This document shows positions 1-57,697 of a DNA stretch of 57,697 bases, one piece after another. This DNA is from a virus. Location of the stretch: IMG/VR virus record IMGVR_UViG_3300045988_023664, positions 1-57,697 of that record; one strand, written 5' to 3'. The stretch's first letter is position 1. Each line of letters opens with the position of its first letter. The position numbers and the translations under genes are program-made. The notes beneath the pieces are model-generated. The model was not told the DNA's origin. It saw only the letters and a program-made list of their open reading frames with translations, and searched no databases.

Positions 1-243
1 TATCCACTTGAACCTATCTGTGCGGAATCTCCACTTGAACCTATCTTTGCGGAATATCCACTTGAACCTATCTTTGCGGAATATCCACTTGAACCTATCT
101 GTGCGGAATATCCACTTGAACCTATCTGTGCGTAATCTCCACTTGAACCTATCTTTGTGGAATCTCCACTTGAACCTATCTGTGCGGAATATCCACTTGA
201 ACCTATCTGTGCGGAATCTCCACTTGAACCTATCTTTGCGGAA
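1..243. repeat. Tandem array of 9 units of 27 bp (consensus tatccacttgaacctatctgtgcggaa), coding on the minus strand
   Basis: Read directly. Units begin at 1, 28, 55 and so on, with point variants (ta/tc prefix, ctg/ctt, gcgg/gcgt/gtgg). The same unit family recurs at 57391-57697. Confidence 0.95.
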
Positions 244-605
244 TTATTGCCATTGTCATTTTCTATGTCATCTTCAATTTCCTCAATCTTCGTTTTCTCC
301 AGAGTAAAATCTACGCAAGCCTTAATAAAACCTTTTAAGCCCAACTTGGCTTTAATGTGAAGCTTATTAGTTGCACATTTGTTTTCTCTTTTAAAAACTT
401 TTCCCAGCGGCTCAACTTCTGCAAATTCTGAAATCTCGCCATTCTCGTTTACAAGAGGGTAATAGTCCAGTACATCAAATGGATTTTCACAATAATGCAT
501 CACACCAGCTTCACATATCTCATTTCCGTTTTCTTTGTATGTTGTGTTTTCTTTGTAGTGTTTACCTTTGCAAGTAAAATCTGGGTTAAATGCTTTATAT
601 GCCAT
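1..605 (-). CDS. N-terminal part of a repeat protein that runs off the window start (DUF7666-like N-domain followed by 9-aa GSSG repeats)
   Basis: Minus-strand ATG at 605-603, with RBS GAGGAA 5 nt upstream. Translation is MAYKAFNPDFTCKGKHYKENTTYKENGNEICEAGVMHYCENPFDVLDYYPLVNENGEISEFAEVEPLGK...NSAKIGSSGDSAQIGSSGYSAQIGSSG, still open at position 1. It is absent from the ORF track because there is no stop inside the window. The N-domain resembles the family I recall as DUF7666. Confidence 0.8.
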   Translation of the reverse strand, partial: MAYKAFNPDFTCKGKHYKENTTYKENGNEICEAGVMHYCENPFDVLDYYPLVNENGEISEFAEVEPLGKVFKRENKCATNKLHIKAKLGLKGFIKACVDFTLEKTKIEEIEDDIENDNGNNSAKIGSSGDSAQIGSSGYSAQIGSSGDSTKIGSSGDYAQIGSSGYSAQIGSSGYSAKIGSSGYSAKIGSSGDSAQIGSSG

Positions 606-34013: not shown

Positions 34014-34106
34014 GTTTACCTGCCTTTCTGATAACTGCCTTATTAACAAAACAACAAACAGGCACTAAGGCTTGTGCTTTTCGGTAGCTAACCTAGTTTG
34101 TTGTAA

Positions 34107-34178
34107 TCGGATAGATAGGACTTGAACCTATGACTACTTGAATGAATCAAGCGTTGCTCCCAACTGAACTACTATCCG
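34107..34178 (-). tRNA. tRNA-like gene with apparent anticodon UCA (opal-reading/suppressor-like), atypical D and anticodon arms
   Basis: Manual fold: perfect 7-bp acceptor (CGGATAG/CTATCCG), T arm ATAGG-TTCAAGT-CCTAT, anticodon arm GCTTG-ATTCATT-CAAGT. U at position 37 and a short or irregular D arm. Confidence 0.5.
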
Positions 34179-34294
34179 AAAAGTGGTAGCAGTAGTGGTT
34201 ACTGCCACTTTGAAATTGCTTTTGCCACTACTTTGTGCAATTTCATGCGGACTTTCTACCGCTTACGGCAAGGTTAACCCCTGTCGTAAGTTAG

Positions 34295-34377
34295 CGCCGA
34301 TATCGTGAATCGAACACGAACAACATTTCTGTTGGATAGCTTAGCGAGCTACTGGAATACCATTATCCCATATCGGC
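34295..34377 (-). tRNA. tRNA-Ser(GCU), type II with a long variable arm
   Basis: Acceptor GCCGATA/TATCGGC, T arm TCGTG-TTCGATT-CACGA, variable stem CAACA/TGTTG, anticodon loop UCGCUAA (C at position 33). Confidence 0.7.
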
Positions 34378-34676
34378 AATTTTATTCGCCATACCTATGA
34401 TTCTTTAAGTTTTGTGGTTTCTGGATCATCAAATATTATTCTCATAGATATGGCTTAATCGAGACTTCATGCCTAGCTGATATTGCACAGTATGGAAACC
34501 TTAGCATACTTCCGAAATACTTTCTTTTCACCGCTTCACTGGATTTCGAAAATACAATAATCCGCTCGGCAAGTTGAAAAACAATTATTCTTTTAATCCC
34601 CATAAGGGCATCCCATACAACAATCATCAAAACTCCCTCGCTTCGCGTAATTATTTGTTCTAGGTTTTAACCTATA

Positions 34677-34748
34677 GCTGGCAAGGTGGGAATCGAACCC
34701 ACGACAAGTCGGTTAACAGCCGACTGCTCTACCACTGAGCTACAAGCC
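34677..34748 (-). tRNA. tRNA-Asn(GUU)
   Basis: GTAGCTCAGTGGTAGAGC D arm, anticodon arm GTCGG-CTGTTAA-CCGAC, T arm GTGGG-TTCGATT-CCCAC. The acceptor stem has two adjacent U-U mismatches. Confidence 0.8.
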
Positions 34749-35062
34749 AAGATTTGAGGGTACTACGATTCAAGCACTCTCTGATAAAATTACATACAAG
34801 AGGGGTTGTATGTAATACCGCCTGTAACGGCTATCAAGAAACAAGAACAGAAACAATAAAATATTAGGGGTGTTTTGATAAGGAGTGCTTCTTGATAAGT
34901 TGGTTTTCACATGGCTATGTATATACACGCCAAACCCTCTCAAGCGGTCTTGCACCGCTTTTAACTGAACAAAATCCAAAGAGGTACATGAAAGGAGGAC
35001 TGTTCTGTGTAAAATGCAAAAACACAATAATGAACAGCCAAACAAATAAAAAGAAAAATAAA

Positions 35063-35134
35063 CTACCCTTATGGGAATCGAACCCATATTGCAGGAATCA
35101 AGCTCCTGTGCATTAACCATTATACTAAAGGGCA
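35063..35134 (-). tRNA. tRNA-Gln(UUG)-like
   Basis: Canonical 72-nt cloverleaf: acceptor TGCCCTT/AAGGGTA, T arm ATGGG-TTCGATT-CCCAT. The anticodon loop is GCUUGAU, giving UUG with C at position 33. Confidence 0.65.
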
Positions 35135-35218
35135 ATAGTGGCTATTCCCAGTATGCATTCGCCACAAGTCGCAGTGTACTATCCTTTGCAACCATTATAC
35201 TTTCAATGACTGACACGA

Positions 35219-38256: not shown

Positions 38257-38463
38257 TTATTTTTTCTCTACATATTTAATGATGTTTCCCGGCTGCATAT
38301 CTAAAAGTTCACACAGCTTTTCCAAAGTTTTAATGCCAATCATTTCATTTTTTCGCAATCTCTGCATTGCTGATTGACTGATTAAGTTCTCTTTTAATAT
38401 GCGTGTGGAATTATAGCCACTTTCTTTAAGCGTATCAAGCACATCTATTTTATATACAAGCAT
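38257..38463 (-). CDS. Small XRE/Cro-type HTH protein (68 aa)
   Basis: NSTRILKENLISQSAMQRLRKNEMIGIKTLEKLCELLDMQPGNII is a typical DUF739/XRE-like HTH. Confidence 0.7.
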   Translation of the reverse strand: MLVYKIDVLDTLKESGYNSTRILKENLISQSAMQRLRKNEMIGIKTLEKLCELLDMQPGNIIKYVEKK

Positions 38464-38493: not shown

Positions 38494-38586
38494 ATTATAT
38501 AATTTGTGGCTTATAAAGTCAATTAAAAAATAATCTAAAAAAAGTTTATTTTAGCTATTGACTTTAAACCGTTTTAAGTTTATTAT
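38494..38586. promoter_or_regulatory. Back-to-back near-consensus promoters: minus TTGACT-17-TATAAT and plus TTGACT-17-TATTAT. Their -35 regions form an 11-bp inverted repeat (ATAAAGTCAAT / ATTGACTTTA).
   Basis: Read directly. An 8-bp GC stem (GGCGGTTG/CAACCGCC, 38614-38647) lies in the plus-strand leader. Confidence 0.55.
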
Positions 38587-38694
38587 AATAACTGTCAAGA
38601 GGACATACAAAAAGGCGGTTGCCACTCTACCAAAGTTTACAACCGCCACCAATCAAAAAGAAAGGTAGCTATATTATAGCACAGGTAAAAAGAA

Positions 38695-39027
38695 ATGAGA
38701 AGAACAAACAGCAAAGAAGTCAAAGCAGCGGTTAGAAACTATTTAACAGAAGTTGCACAGAGTGAAGAGCTTAACACAATTAAGGATATCAAGGATAAGT
38801 TTACAAATGAGTACGGTTGGGCGGTTGCAAGGCTTGGGGAACGTAACGCCTGTATAGAATGGCTGAGAGGTTTAGGCGTTAGCGTTGATTATAGTTATTA
38901 TGACATCATCCAGCTTATGTCTGAATGGTTAGACGAAAGCACAGAAGAAGCTGAAAAATGGCTTGATAAGCGTGGTGATGGTCTTTACTGGGATTTATTA
39001 GCAAGGGAGATTTTAGCAAGCAAATAA
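38695..39027 (+). CDS. Hypothetical acidic protein (110 aa)
   Basis: ORF behind the plus-strand promoter. Confidence 0.6.
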   Translation: MRRTNSKEVKAAVRNYLTEVAQSEELNTIKDIKDKFTNEYGWAVARLGERNACIEWLRGLGVSVDYSYYDIIQLMSEWLDESTEEAEKWLDKRGDGLYWDLLAREILASK

Positions 39028-39070
39028 TTAGCAAGGTTGGCTTTTCCGGGGTTCGATTCCCCGGCTTGCT
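39015..39070 (+). other. tRNA-like acceptor/T-arm minihelix 1
   Basis: AGCAAGC...CCGGGG-TTCGATT-CCCCGG-CTTGCT has a perfect T-loop consensus and a complementary acceptor-like stem. The 5' strand overlaps the stop codon of the preceding CDS. Confidence 0.55.
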
Positions 39071-39113
39071 TTTACCCGGATAACTGGGAAATTTAAAATA
39101 TGGAGGTGGTACT

Positions 39114-39416
39114 GTGAAATATGTACACTGGCTAAAAATTGACGGATATTCAAAACTTGAAGAAACTGCTTTACAATTTCAATCTATCGAAAATTATCTA
39201 AAAGCCTATCCAAAGGCTAAAGCTATGTTATATCAATATGATAATGGCTCATTTAATTGGATAGTGCGTTTAGAATGTGAACAGTGTTACATTGATTTAG
39301 ATTTAGATGTCAATAGCAGCTCAACAAGATTAGAAAGATTTTCATCTAAACCAAAGAACATAGGAAGAGAAAGGATTTTCAAATTTCCAGAACATTACAA
39401 AAAATATATTGAATAA
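39114..39416 (+). CDS. Hypothetical protein (100 aa)
   Basis: GTG at 39114 after GGAGGTGG. Confidence 0.55.
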   Translation: MKYVHWLKIDGYSKLEETALQFQSIENYLKAYPKAKAMLYQYDNGSFNWIVRLECEQCYIDLDLDVNSSSTRLERFSSKPKNIGRERIFKFPEHYKKYIE

Positions 39417-39440
39417 GGGCGTACAATCTGCGCCCTTTTT
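39417..39440 (+). terminator. Intrinsic terminator (GGGCG-N9-CGCCC followed by TTTTT)
   Basis: Read directly, right after the stop codon. Confidence 0.7.
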
Positions 39441-39441
39441 G

Positions 39442-39481
39442 GCTTGCTGTGGTTTGGCTGGTTCGATTCCAGCCACAAGCA
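39442..39481 (+). other. tRNA-like acceptor/T-arm minihelix 2
   Basis: GCTTG(C)TG-N7-GCTGG-TTCGATT-CCAGC-CACAAGC-A forms a 7-bp acceptor-like stem (one bulge) plus a canonical T arm, with no D or anticodon arms. Confidence 0.55.
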
Positions 39482-39483
39482 TT

Positions 39484-39510
39484 AAGCATATATTTTTATA
39501 TGCTTTTATT
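39484..39510 (+). terminator. Intrinsic terminator (AAGCATATA-TTTT-TATATGCTT followed by TTATT)
   Basis: Read directly. Confidence 0.55.
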
Positions 39511-39544
39511 GTACCTTGAAAAATTAATATAATAATGCTATGCT

Positions 39545-40049
39545 TATATATAGGGCTTTTGCACTTTTAGGTGTACAAGTGTACCCAGTTGGGGCGGCGT
39601 GTGTTCTGGTATATCTTCCAGATCTAGCAACAACTTCCACAACTTTCAAGGGCATATTATACCCATTTTATACAATACATTTAAAAGCGTTTTAAGGCTG
39701 TTTGTTCTGTAGGCTTAGAAGTCTACACCGACACAATAAAACCGCCGTACAGGGCAAATCACAAAGCCAAAACAAGCACGAACCGCAGCCGGTCAAGTTC
39801 GCATAAAACGCTTTAATCTATTAAAGTTTTTCATCAATTTTTCAGGGCAAATCTGAACAAAATCGGGAGCAAAAATTGAAATTCTGTGTAACCGATTTTT
39901 GGATTCCAAAATTGCATATGACGGGGGTATTTGAAACGGCGCATTATAATTTTGTGGGAAAATTTTTTCAATTTTTAAAATATAATTTGAACGAAATCTG
40001 AACCAAATTTTGAGATTTTTTAAAATTGAAATTGTGAATACAAAAAGTC
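39545..40049 (+). ncRNA. Candidate about 0.5-kb non-coding transcript (strand uncertain), convergent with cas5
   Basis: No ORF of 60 aa or more on either strand across 39417-40098. There is a candidate promoter TTGAAA-17-TGcTATGCT at 39516-39544 and a long-range 11-bp pairing AAAGCGTTTTA (39684) with TAAAACGCTTT (39804). Internal hairpins are present and a terminator lies at 40050-40095. Confidence 0.3.
39849..40033. repeat. Two degenerate 35-40-bp direct repeats (39849-39883 and 39994-40033): AAATCTGAAC...AAAATTGAAAT(T). A third related end, GTATTTGAAAC, lies at 39928-39937. ACGGGGGTA occurs twice.
   Basis: Read directly. Exact shared blocks are aaatctgaac (10 nt) and aaaattgaaatt (12 nt). 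Confidence 0.75.
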
Positions 40050-40095
40050 AACCCACGGGGGTAAAGAAAAATTTTACCTATATTCCGTGGGTTTT
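40050..40095. terminator. Bidirectional terminator hairpin (AACCCACGG...CCGTGGGTT followed by TTTT)
   Basis: A 9-bp outer stem with an inner GGTAAA/TTTACC stem, 4 nt from the cas5 stop codon. Confidence 0.65.
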
Positions 40096-40098
40096 AAA

Positions 40099-40797
40099 TT
40101 AGTTTATAAAAATAATTGGCTTATCATCATCAAAAAGATTGCTCACAACTTCTTGTCCTTTATCCACTAAATAACAAGAAACTTTCTGGAATCGCCTAAG
40201 ACCCTTAATGATTTCGTATTTGTTATTAATTCTATAGATAGTTCCCGCAAAATTGCCTTTATTAACAGGAATATAAGATTGCATAGCAAGTGGAGCTGAT
40301 ATGGATTTGTCAAGCTCCTTAAGTTCTACAATATCCACTGCTTCAATCTTACATAAATCACCATACTCACCTAATGATGGATATACTGGTGGGTTTAGTA
40401 ACGCACGGTATATATCATCTATGTCACTATCATCAGCTTTGATGTATATAGTTGTATATAAATCAACTAGCATTAGATGATATTTAACTGTACTAACCCA
40501 GCCGGTGTGGCTTCCGTCTGCATGATCTGTTATAATATCCCAACGATTAAGCATTTCATCGCTAATTTTGTTGAAATTATAGCCACCGTGCCATTCTTTT
40601 TGCACCTTAGTATTATAAATTCCTTTGCCAGTAACAAAATAATCTAATTTATGATACATTTTCCATTGACACATTGAATGAATAAACCCATTAACTGTAC
40701 TAAATGGTGGCAAAGGGTAGCAATCTGCACCTTTTGGCGCTGATGGATTATTGAATCTAGCCATTTCTTGATACATTTTTAATCTTACAACTCTCAT
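40099..40797 (-). CDS. cas5: Stand-alone CRISPR-associated Cas5 homolog (type I-B, Cas5t/Tneap-like), 232 aa
   Basis: MRVVRLKMYQEMARFNNP....CYPLPPFSTVNGFIHSMC at the N-terminus, and ...LLNPPVYPSLGEYGDLCKIEAVDIVEL...YIP...GTIYRINNKYE...R.F.KV..YLV. These match the Cas5t hallmarks I recall (YPLPPYSTViG... and LGRsEDl..i.ev.iVEL). The ATG at 40797 follows GAGG. The N-terminal extension in the ORF track is rejected. Confidence 0.7.
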   Translation of the reverse strand: MRVVRLKMYQEMARFNNPSAPKGADCYPLPPFSTVNGFIHSMCQWKMYHKLDYFVTGKGIYNTKVQKEWHGGYNFNKISDEMLNRWDIITDHADGSHTGWVSTVKYHLMLVDLYTTIYIKADDSDIDDIYRALLNPPVYPSLGEYGDLCKIEAVDIVELKELDKSISAPLAMQSYIPVNKGNFAGTIYRINNKYEIIKGLRRFQKVSCYLVDKGQEVVSNLFDDDKPIIFIN

Positions 40798-40916
40798 AAT
40801 AAAACCTCTAAAATAAAATAAGTTGCACCTATACAAAAATGTATCAATGCAACTTTCCACTATGGTTCTATTAAGGTAAAATGATATATTAATTATCAAT
40901 TGTTTACATCTATTAA

Positions 40917-40945
40917 ATAATAGCATTTTTAAATATTATTGTCAA
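40917..40945 (-). promoter_or_regulatory. Near-consensus promoter for cas5 (TTGACA-17 nt-TATTAT)
   Basis: Read on the minus strand. A leader of about 110 nt with a 7-bp hairpin (AGTTGCA...TGCAACT) follows. Confidence 0.55.
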
Positions 40946-44813: not shown

Positions 44814-46061
44814 CTAATAATTAATAGCATTATTAACTTGCTCAATCTTAGTTCTATCAGTCTTATTACTGTAAATGTAATATTTTCTTGTTGTCTCAAT
44901 GCTTGTATGCCCCATCATTTCTGTTATAACAGTGTCGCTCACGCAATTATCATACAATGCAACACTGTATGCCCGGCGGACTTTGTGTGTGGAACGATAA
45001 TTAATGTCTAGTGCCTTGCATATCTTATGCAACTTTCTGTTAAATGCTTGTTCCTTTATACGCTCTCCCTTTTCTTCAAACATATAAGTTCCAAAAGGAT
45101 TTAATCTTCGAATTGCCTTAACAGTATTTACAGCTTTATCTGGAATAATTATATCTCTTAATCCTGCGTCAGATTTAGGATAGTCGCTTACTATCTTAGC
45201 CCATTTCCCATTTTCATCTCTGACCTTAATTTCTGTTCTTTGTATAGAAATATAATGCTTAATAGTTCCATCTTTCAGTACAGTGTTGTGAATATCAGAA
45301 AACTTAAGTGATGATAACTCGCCAGCTCTCATTCCACACTCAAACATAAGTAATAATCCCAGGCTCCTTATATCATATCGTTGCCATAGATATTCTGTGA
45401 TTCTTGGAATTTCATCCTCGAAATACACCTGTTCCTCTTTCTTTTTCACATTTTTAGTAAAAGCTCTGCGTGATAAATCCAAGTCTCCCATAAATTGTGT
45501 GATACTTAGATTAGAATACCCCTTTTTCTTGGCATATTTAAAAATGCCATTAATAAGGATTCGCATATCAGAATATGCCTTATGTGTAAGCTTACATTCG
45601 GCAATAACAGTCTTAATAAAGCATTCTAAGTCATCTTCTGTAATGTACTTGATTTTCTTATCTGCCATGTGATATGCTTCATTAGTGAAAAATCTGGCAA
45701 AGTTATCATTATACTTATCATATGACTGTTTCTTGATTTCGTGATAATCAAGTTTTTGGTCTACCCATTCCTTGAATACAGCCTTAACTAAAGGTTCATT
45801 AGCAAGTTTCTTGTAGTGTTCCACAATCCCATCTTCAAGAGACTCTTGCGTTGAACGCTTTAGCAGCTTTCTGCCGCTTGATGTGCTTTCGTCTGGCAAG
45901 TATGTATACCACTTCTTATCCTTTCCTTGCCAGATTTCATTATTGTGTGCTTTTAAATATTTTTTCCTTTCGTTCATTTCAATTTGTTTTTGAACATCGT
46001 CACGAGAGATAATATCATTCTCTAGTACATAATTCAACAATTCCTTGTCTGTTAGCTCCAC
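44814..46061 (-). CDS. int: Tyrosine recombinase / phage integrase
   Basis: The C-terminal catalytic region ...HKVRRAYSVALYD...MGHTSIETTRKYY carries the R..H..R..Y signature context. Confidence 0.9.
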   Translation of the reverse strand: MELTDKELLNYVLENDIISRDDVQKQIEMNERKKYLKAHNNEIWQGKDKKWYTYLPDESTSSGRKLLKRSTQESLEDGIVEHYKKLANEPLVKAVFKEWVDQKLDYHEIKKQSYDKYNDNFARFFTNEAYHMADKKIKYITEDDLECFIKTVIAECKLTHKAYSDMRILINGIFKYAKKKGYSNLSITQFMGDLDLSRRAFTKNVKKKEEQVYFEDEIPRITEYLWQRYDIRSLGLLLMFECGMRAGELSSLKFSDIHNTVLKDGTIKHYISIQRTEIKVRDENGKWAKIVSDYPKSDAGLRDIIIPDKAVNTVKAIRRLNPFGTYMFEEKGERIKEQAFNRKLHKICKALDINYRSTHKVRRAYSVALYDNCVSDTVITEMMGHTSIETTRKYYIYSNKTDRTKIEQVNNAINY

Positions 46062-57150: not shown

Positions 57151-57697
57151 TTAGTTTTCCTCCACTTCTTTAAATTCGCCATCTACCAGTTTATAGAATA
57201 TATCTTCCTTGATACGCTCTCCGTCAACGTATTCGGTCTTAACGCATTTAGGAATCCAAATGCAGAAGCCTTTTTCATCTTTATCACCCGTTCTTACCCA
57301 TTCAGCAAGTGTTATCCAGCTACCTTTTTTAGCTTTTGCCTGCGACTGATAGCCTGCTGCCATAACAACTGAATGTTTACCCTTAGATGTTATCCGTGCG
57401 TAATTTCCACTTGAACCTATCTGTGCGTAATCTCCACTTGAACCTATCTTTGCGGAATATCCACTTGAACCTATCTTTGCGGAATATCCACTTGAACCTA
57501 TCTGTGCGGAATATCCACTTGAACCTATCTGTGCGTAATCTCCACTTGAACCTATCTTTGCGGAATATCCACTTGAACCTATCTTTGCGGAATATCCACT
57601 TGAACCTATCTGTGCGGAATATCCACTTGAACCTATCTGTGCGGAATCTCCACTTGAACCTATCTGTGCGGAATATCCACTTGAACCTATCTGTGCG
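57151..57697 (-). CDS. C-terminal part of the repeat protein that starts at 605 (9-aa repeats plus a conserved C-domain)
   Basis: The frame is open from 57697: ...SAQIGSSGYSAKIGSSGDYAQIGSSGNYARITSKGKHSVVMAAGYQSQAKAKKGSWITLAEW... to the stop at 57151. The ORF track lists only the ATG-initiated end, 57151..57363. Confidence 0.8.
   Translation of the reverse strand, partial: AQIGSSGYSAQIGSSGDSAQIGSSGYSAQIGSSGYSAKIGSSGYSAKIGSSGDYAQIGSSGYSAQIGSSGYSAKIGSSGYSAKIGSSGDYAQIGSSGNYARITSKGKHSVVMAAGYQSQAKAKKGSWITLAEWVRTGDKDEKGFCIWIPKCVKTEYVDGERIKEDIFYKLVDGEFKEVEEN
57391..57697. repeat. Tandem array of about 11 units of the same 27-bp repeat as at 1-243
   Basis: Read directly. The last unit is truncated after 24 nt by the window end. 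Confidence 0.95.

Follow-up and report, generated by a model that had tools for sequence, protein, structure and literature searches.

The virus record IMGVR_UViG_3300045988_023664 of IMG/VR, analysed over positions 1 to 57,697 (hereafter the window), contains two tRNA-like acceptor/T-arm minihelices, E1 and E2, located after small genes of a short plus-strand operon in a phage whose host is probably a Lachnospiraceae bacterium. Both elements fold on the strand that carries the genes of this operon, belong to a covarying family conserved across hundreds of related phages and stand at the borders of cistrons. With a probability of about one half, they can be considered RNA elements that would be processed by the host ribonucleases (RNases) P and Z, splitting the operon mRNA. 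The minihelices were pointed out in an earlier note made from the sequence alone, which offered three explanations: relics of tRNA 3′ ends or alternative attachment (att) cores, signals for the processing or stabilisation of mRNA, and decoys for tRNA-binding proteins. Of these, the processing signal fits best, on circumstantial grounds that include the 12-bp stack, the absence of an encoded CCA, the placement at junctions, the adjoining hairpins and the occurrence of a hammerhead ribozyme at an equivalent junction in relatives.

Structure of the E1 and E2 elements

The two elements and their immediate surroundings comprise the following features:

38695–39027, plus strand: upstream cistron, a 110-aa gene (phrog_11100) with a TAA stop at 39025–39027
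39015–39021, plus strand: AGCAAGC, a distal duplicate of the 5′ acceptor strand of E1, in the last codons of the 110-aa gene
39030–39071, plus strand: E1 minihelix (sequence, fold and covariance model, 63.9 bits)
39075–39088, plus strand: small hairpin CCCGG-ATAA-CTGGG, 4 nt past the acceptor 3′ strand of E1 and ahead of the ribosome-binding site (RBS)
39114–39416, plus strand: downstream cistron, a 100-aa gene with no family match
39415–39440, plus strand: terminator-like hairpin T1 (AAGGGCG-TACAA-TCTGCGCCCTT) with a T5 tract, abutting the 5′ strand of E2
39442–39481, plus strand: E2 minihelix (sequence, fold and covariance model, 30.8 bits, E 2e-6)
39485–39506, plus strand: AT-rich hairpin T2 (AAGCATATA-TTTT-TATATGCTT), then TTATT, 3 nt past E2

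E1 begins 2 nt past the TAA of the 110-aa gene. Its 5′ arm, AGCAAG (39030–39035), is followed by the 10-nt linker GTTGGCTTTT (39036–39045), which contains GG, and by a T-arm consisting of CCGGGG (39046–39051), the loop TTCGATT (39052–39058) and CCCCGG (39059–39064); the 3′ arm CTTGCT (39065–39070) and an unpaired T (39071) complete the element. E2 is built from the 5′ arm GCTTGC (39442–39447), the 8-nt linker TGTGGTTT (39448–39455), the T-arm GGCTGG (39456–39461), TTCGATT (39462–39468) and CCAGCC (39469–39474), the 3′ arm ACAAGC (39475–39480) and an unpaired A (39481). Each element has a 12-bp acceptor/T-arm stack and a canonical T-loop, and, as the earlier note had stated, neither possesses a D or an anticodon arm: only the GG-containing linker of 8–10 nt separates the 5′ acceptor strand from the T-stem. 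The T-arms are of the tRNA type, with a loop fitting TTCRANY and a closing pair of the G53:C61 kind. The innermost acceptor pair of E2 is C·A: where the family consensus reads GCAAGC, E2 of the window has a G>A change peculiar to it, and this change is the reason for the bulged C in the first drawing of E2.

AGCAAG does occur twice at E1, and the distal copy, first described as overlapping the stop codon, lies in the last codons of the gene, before the TAA. The AGCAAGC duplicate allows an alternative 7 + 5 bp pairing with E1; TTAGCA-type duplicates are likewise present in several unrelated upstream genes of relatives. The position of E2 between two terminator-like hairpins, T1 and T2, was confirmed. 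T1 is kept with E2 in most non-chimeric metagenome loci, with a compensatory variant GGGTG..CACCC, and T2 is conserved with E2 in metagenome loci; the fold of 39410–39515, which includes T2, has a z-score of −4.96. The sequence TACAAT in the loop of T1 was considered as a promoter belonging to E2 and rejected, since its last T varies in relatives and no −35 box lies at a usable spacing.

Neither ARAGORN nor the Rfam tRNA model RF00005 detects a full tRNA at E1 or E2, and the same tools call four tRNAs elsewhere in the window. With at most one mismatch, GGTTCGATTCC occurs five times in the window (0.30 expected), and E1 and E2 are the sole matches of the 12-bp covariance model there, on the plus strand only.

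Conservation and covariation

The 25-mer of E1 is found without mismatches in more than 119 IMG/VR phage contigs among the matches listed. In 96 distinct contexts the sequences flanking it are unrelated, ungapped identity being about 30% up to the very edge of the element. Contigs bearing E1 also contain further minihelices on the same strand, 289–944 nt downstream. A common architecture unites at least eight classes, which differ in their self-complementary stems; the acceptor stems include GCTTGC..GCAAGC, TCGCGT..GCGCGG, ATCCGT..ACGGAT, AAGTGACG..CGTCACTT, GCAACC..GGTTGT and AGCGGT..ACCGCT, and several classes with distinct acceptor stems are present in one phage. In every class a matching 5′ strand lies 8–19 nt upstream of the T-stem. 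A structural scan of 1.14 Mb of related loci returned 175 non-tRNA minihelices, compared with three matches of any kind in shuffled sequences, and the acceptor and T stems together measure 12–13 bp in 154 of the 175. GG is present in 179 of 194 linkers, versus 65% of shuffled linkers.

A scan anchored on the T-loop and the TTTACC tail recovered variants of E1 with compensatory changes: AGCAAG/CTTGCT is replaced by GGCAAG/CTTGCC or GGCAAC/GTTGCT, and a C-G pair of the T-stem by U-A. GC-rich elements in unrelated contigs were recovered as well. Since a MAFFT alignment of all classes placed the 5′ strands out of register, a gapless seed, a covariance model and a model-guided alignment were used; the covariance model is E1-biased and misses the class E3 at E < 0.01. 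In the model-guided alignment of 119 matches (90 distinct sequences), 97.4% of cells pair, as against 33–54% in slid controls. Ten of the 12 pairs change on both sides among the 90 sequences. Cells changed on both sides number 176 (30.6 ± 6.8 in shuffles), and the covariation score is 0.543 (0.150 in shuffles). The two loop-proximal pairs are G-C in 89–90 of the 90 sequences, like G52:C62 and G53:C61 of tRNA. The alignment contains 54 G·U cells versus 13 A·C cells, an indication that the strand of the open reading frames (ORFs) is the folded strand; for E1 the covariance model gives 63.9 bits on the plus strand and 10.5 bits on the minus strand. The conservation and covariation in related phages that the earlier note had suggested checking were both found.

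Two GC-rich contigs that appear to lie outside this phage group contain elements with the same 12-bp acceptor/T-arm architecture (L158:3599–3638, plus strand; L164:7668–7711, plus strand), the former directly before an RBS and ATG. They hint that this type of element is perhaps not confined to Lachnospiraceae phages. A further minihelix class (AGCGGT, 17-nt linker, ACAGGG-TTCGATT-CCCTGT, RYCGCT) is found on the strand opposite E1 in related loci (for instance L027:11285, plus; L028:7666, minus), 4.8–6.9 kb upstream of E1 in the orientation of E1, on the side that holds the tRNA cluster of the window. Because its 5′ strand is repeated about 55 nt upstream, a longer tRNA-like fold is possible.

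Placement at cistron junctions

A same-strand ORF of at least 40 aa ends near the element in 119 of 123 E1 copies, the 5′ arm typically starting between 2 nt inside and 8 nt past the upstream stop codon. A downstream ORF with a Shine–Dalgarno-like sequence follows 107 of the 123 copies, mostly with its start 24–47 nt past the element; the 100-aa gene of the window has the RBS GGAGG at 39102–39106. The flanking genes belong to 33 upstream and 44 downstream families and encode small proteins, mostly of unknown function. The 100-aa gene is also found after an element of the class E4 in a related locus (L035).

Hairpins accompany the elements. One lies within 0–7 nt downstream of 129 of 194 unique elements (66%, versus 7.7% in shuffles), usually starting 3–4 nt past the paired 3′ end, and its stem varies and covaries between loci. 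In the classes E2 and E3, a terminator-like hairpin with a U tract comes before the element and abuts its 5′ strand. No element encodes CCA, the unpaired base being followed by U or C; an encoded CCA is likewise missing from 175 of the 201 unique tRNAs of related phage loci.

The same operon carries type II hammerhead ribozymes (Rfam RF02276) in related phages, with scores of 58–67 bits (threshold 37) in 13 of 22 related loci scanned, and hammerheads are present by similarity in at least 65 related loci. Examples matching RF02276 are:

L087:3797–3866, minus strand: hammerhead ribozyme
L081:4459–4527, plus strand: hammerhead ribozyme
L126:3653–3721, plus strand: hammerhead ribozyme

In all 56 loci holding both, the hammerhead lies on the strand of E1, 279–1249 nt upstream. 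It begins on the stop codon of a small gene (TAG-CCGAAAC) and ends just before the next RBS and ATG. The Rfam scan found no hammerhead in the window; for the hairpin at 38607–38650 of the window, a homologous sequence comes after the hammerhead of L087.

Genomic setting

Nearly all genes of the window are on the minus strand. E1 and E2 lie inside the one short plus-strand operon, at 38.6–39.5 kb, which diverges from a Cro-like gene; a homologue of this divergent gene bounds the operon on the left in at least 38 of 79 relatives. Other features of the window are:

34106–35135, minus strand: four tRNA genes (ARAGORN and Rfam tRNA model)
38257–38463, minus strand: Cro-like helix–turn–helix gene (HTH_26 match)
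38558–38586, plus strand: promoter-like site TTGACT-17-TATTAT for the plus-strand operon (consensus match only)
38607–38650, plus strand: hairpin GGCGGTTG...CAACCGCC in the 5′ untranslated region (UTR) ahead of the 110-aa gene, read from the sequence
40099–40926, minus strand: Cas5b-like protein of 275 aa (TIGR01895, E 7e-24, below the curated cut-off; PADLOC Cas5b, 1.9e-24)
44814–46061: integrase of the ordinary phage type

The same 27-nt tandem repeat array is present at both ends of the window (3–379 and 57271–57697), so that the window is very likely the entire phage genome, about 57 kb, in a circular assembly whose join would lie inside the repeat. When 50,697 phage records were searched for cultured relatives with blastn and tblastn, no annotated relative emerged, the matches being either distant or no longer than the T-loop. 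The tRNA cluster (34038–35135, minus strand) comprises Gln, Asn and Ser tRNAs and a tRNA with the anticodon TCA, labelled SeC by ARAGORN and possibly an opal suppressor. The cluster leads directly into an int-alpA RNA motif (RF02996, 53.8 bits), and this pairing of tRNAs and int-alpA is also seen in relatives. The opposite strand of the 38607–38650 hairpin has a sub-threshold match to ctRNA_pT181 (30.6 bits versus 56).

Between E2 and the Cas5b-like gene, about 600 nt (39507–40098) contain no convincing ORF, and part of this stretch also follows E2 in relatives. It includes short motifs that occur in pairs with a spacing of about 145 nt: CAGGGCAAATC, AAATCTGAAC.AAAT and AAAATTGAAATT.TG. A search of 39507–40098 for a CRISPR-like repeat or a structured RNA gave only these short paired motifs and unremarkable fold z-scores; the region could hold a promoter, a small RNA (sRNA) or a CRISPR RNA-like unit.

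Proposed processing of the operon mRNA

According to the proposed model, E1 and E2 would be transcribed from the plus strand as segments of the mRNA of one short operon, whose small genes are variable, and each would fold as a coaxial tRNA acceptor/T-arm helix of 12 bp with a true T-loop, the GG of the short linker probably standing in for the D-loop. Cleavage by host RNase P would fall at the 5′ boundary of the helix and, because no CCA is encoded, RNase Z would be expected to cut just past the unpaired base behind the 3′ strand. Single-gene mRNAs would thereby arise from the polycistronic transcript. Hairpins at the 5′ and 3′ ends of mRNA slow exonucleolytic decay; the hairpin 3–4 nt downstream of an element might become the protective 5′ end of the next mRNA, and the terminator-like hairpin before elements of the E2 and E3 types the protective 3′ end of the previous one. 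A tRNA top half of about 42 nt would be released and probably CCA-tailed. In Firmicutes, pre-tRNAs without CCA are cut by RNase P at the 5′ end and by RNase Z 3′ of the discriminator, and CCA is then added (PMC1874595).

Several observations weigh against this model. In eight of 68 metagenome contigs (among L174–L241), the 5′ part of E1 is joined to the 3′ part of E2 inside the shared T-loop GGTTCGATTCC. These chimeras delete the intervening gene or genes, and their stems are unpaired and cannot fold. The existence of such non-folding chimeras shows that the elements are dispensable and that the direct-repeat T-loops are deletion hotspots. E2 follows a strong-looking terminator, T1, with a 9-bp stem and a T5 tract, so that E2 would be transcribed by read-through only, unless T1 mainly serves stabilisation. 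About nine copies of E2 in metagenome contigs have an A·C mismatch in the T-stem, and the 25-mer of E1 is invariant in sequence beyond structural need. The covariation alignment was fitted to its own model, and most E1 copies came from an exact-match search with the core, so that the E1 cores were partly fixed by the search pattern. The interchange of hammerheads and E1 beside the same genes, also considered, is weakly indicated, as the two kinds of junction have just a single upstream and a single downstream gene family in common.

If processing takes place as modelled, the elements would be the first dedicated family of tRNA-top-half processing signals described in bacteriophage mRNAs; no earlier description of them was found in the literature searched. 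The presence of an element expected to depend on host enzymes at the same kind of junction as the hammerhead favours plain mRNA punctuation and differential stability as the role of prophage hammerheads. A broader proposal, which is tentative and rather unlikely, is that a large group of human-gut Lachnospiraceae phages may punctuate their accessory operons with interchangeable self-cleaving hammerheads and minimal 42-nt tRNA top halves, the latter making use of RNase P, RNase Z and the CCA-adding enzyme of the host; the released halves would be abundant CCA-tailed sRNAs. If true, this would be a bacterial counterpart of mitochondrial tRNA punctuation, and the released top halves might act on tRNA-binding host factors or defence proteins. 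Short and abundant in viromes of the human gut, the elements also delimit a region of hypervariable gene content in which defence or counter-defence genes may reside; a possible use is as compact processing tags for multigene constructs in Firmicutes.

Alternative explanations

A trans-acting product, in which CCA-tailed top halves serve as decoys or sponges for proteins that bind the acceptor/T-arm or the elbow of tRNA, appears rather improbable, and is compatible with processing in any case. The candidate targets are defence toxins that modify the acceptor end, enzymes of tRNA maturation and the CCA-adding enzyme. Such a role is favoured by the tRNA-like features that go beyond a plain hairpin (the invariant G-C pair, the T-loop and the linker GG), the variety of acceptor stems in one phage, the conservation of the E1 25-mer beyond structural need and the location among hypervariable accessory genes, where genes of defence or counter-defence are often found. 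A catalogue of 10,006 candidate phage RNAs includes structures of 64 and 81 nt from Blautia and Ruminococcus phages that are very highly expressed in small-RNA sequencing of stool and could be the same elements (PMC10690425). However, a product acting in trans would not need tight coupling to the stop codon and RBS, tolerance of the chimeric deletions argues against it and, without an anticodon arm, the elements cannot mimic the substrates of anticodon nucleases. Nor is a partner protein conserved nearby. The earlier note had regarded an orphan cas5 in the same island as a reason to suspect counter-defence. The Cas5b-like identity of this gene is real, and it is solitary, with no other cas genes nearby, but among the 77 relatives whose downstream sequence is long enough it accompanies E1 in only 15. 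The suggested link is thus weak, and a functional pairing with the minihelices was rejected; the gene is one of many alternative cargo genes and no partner of the elements. It is very improbable that the elements are terminators or attenuators, or structures near the stop codon that tune translation termination and reinitiation between cistrons. The T-arm of E1 together with CTTGCTTTTA passes a loose terminator pattern scan, T-rich tails follow several classes, and a ribosome halted at the upstream stop codon would cover the 5′ arm. Yet no U tract follows the helix of E2 or E3, the next gene begins 24–47 nt on with its own RBS and no promoter, and a terminator would not need the conserved T-loop, the GG linker or the 12-bp length.

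Two further explanations were weighed. That the elements are anchors or module boundaries for the swapping of accessory genes, with a tRNA-like fold that is incidental or ancestral, seems distinctly improbable. E1 does form an island of identity, with its invariant core set between flanks of about 30% ungapped identity and many gene families; the 100-aa gene found after E1 in the window reappears after the E4-class element in L035, and the E1/E2 hybrids crossed over in GGTTCGATTCC are direct proof of recombination in the T-loop. In these hybrids, however, the pairing is lost, and all of them represent deletions, with no reciprocal junction (5′ part of E2, 3′ part of E1) among the matches listed (about 119 loci). 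The breakpoint of homology of the gene shared by the window and L035 lies near the RBS, outside the element, and classes that differ in sequence cannot anchor exchange with one another. A DNA anchor would also have no use for compensatory changes in both helices, the bias of G·U over A·C or the invariant tRNA-type pairs. The elements do not behave as attC-like cassette sites of integrons, which site-specific exchange leaves intact: the only exchanges seen lie in the T-loop and yield non-folding, deletion-type hybrids, and the integrase of the window is of the ordinary phage, not the integron, type. The remaining explanation, decaying tRNA genes or scars of integration and excision at tRNA 3′ ends that have no present function, is scarcely credible and has been largely refuted. 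It draws on the resemblance of the T-arm and 3′ acceptor strand to a tRNA 3′ end, on the integrase and tRNA cluster of the phage and on the first 7 nt of the E2 region (TGGCTTG), which equal the 5′ end of the phage tRNA-Asn. According to the earlier note, exact identity to the 3′ end of a host tRNA gene that is attB for a related phage would make the elements recombination scars; exact scans of genomes and metagenomes gave no tRNA gene. The 25-mer of E1 was found in four of 185,579 species-representative genomes and in no tRNA gene; the four matches, in Lachnospiraceae metagenome-assembled genomes, Clostridium sp. CAG:510 and a short contig binned as Treponema, all have the same phage context between small genes. 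The 3′ half of E2 was matched exactly in 68 metagenome contigs, mostly human-gut, with no overlap with predicted tRNAs. Contigs of 169–265 kb (L212, L222, L234), probably prophage-bearing host chromosomes judging from their size, are collinear with the window on both sides of E1 and E2; the elements are therefore internal in the presumed integrated prophages, on which ground a phage attachment site (attP) at them was rejected, and they lie 5.3 kb from the integrase. The real att site was not found in the loci used, which end short of the prophage ends. Every class, moreover, has a covarying 5′ strand 8–19 nt before the T-stem, which a scar would not carry, and architecture and placement are uniform across classes.

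Comparison with known systems

The t-elements of plant mitochondria (Hanic-Joyce 1990; Forner et al. 2007) are among the closest precedents for what is proposed for E1 and E2, being tRNA-like, with a GGTTCRANYCC T-arm, and located at the ends of coding units. As with these, E1 and E2 combine a T-arm motif and an acceptor-like stem on the coding strand, at the border of a coding unit in a predicted mRNA precursor. In the t-elements, cuts by RNase P on the 5′ side and by RNase Z on the 3′ side have been mapped experimentally; they yield mRNA ends and a small RNA to which non-templated C/A is added (PMC1920247). The t-elements are organellar and mostly a degenerate cloverleaf of about 74 nt, whereas E1 and E2 measure about 42 nt, have the D and anticodon arms replaced by a mere linker, belong to a bacteriophage operon and form part of several covarying classes.

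A tRNA mimic at the end of a transcript is also found in the eukaryotic mascRNA and MEN-beta (MALAT1, NEAT1; RF01684), where RNase P sets the 3′ end of the transcript and the mimic is released by RNase Z and CCA-tailed. These RNAs are cloverleaf-shaped, and E1 is no member of the family: mascRNA-menRNA is its best sub-threshold Rfam match, at 22.1 bits versus 42.5. In Rfam 15, no family reaches its threshold for E1, E2 or the other classes in the window and 22 related loci. The tRNA-like domain of tmRNA resembles E1 and E2 in having an acceptor stem, a T-arm and a D-loop-like single strand but no anticodon arm. Unlike tmRNA, E1 and E2 have no mRNA-like domain or tag ORF; ARAGORN finds no tmRNA, and a local match to the Rfam tmRNA model covers the T-arm only (13 bits).

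Among phages, the P4 CI RNA is presumably a substrate of RNase P. The C4 RNAs of P1 and P7 and the M3 RNA of phi80 are small RNAs excised by RNase P from an operon transcript via an acceptor/T-arm-like helix; they are single-copy and contain antisense loops that regulate immunity genes. On inspection, no complementarity of the E1 linker to targets in the flanking UTRs was found. RNase P processes C4 and M3 and also some operon mRNAs (PMC11143913). Clustered type II hammerheads that flank variable small genes have been described in prophages, including one of Clostridium scindens; the polycistronic RNA is cleaved in vitro, and cutting into gene-length mRNAs was proposed (Perreault et al. 2011, PMC3088659). 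Prophage hammerheads and minihelices alike flank single small variable genes in prophage operons, but the hammerheads cleave themselves, whereas the minihelices contain no catalytic core and would need the enzymes of the host.

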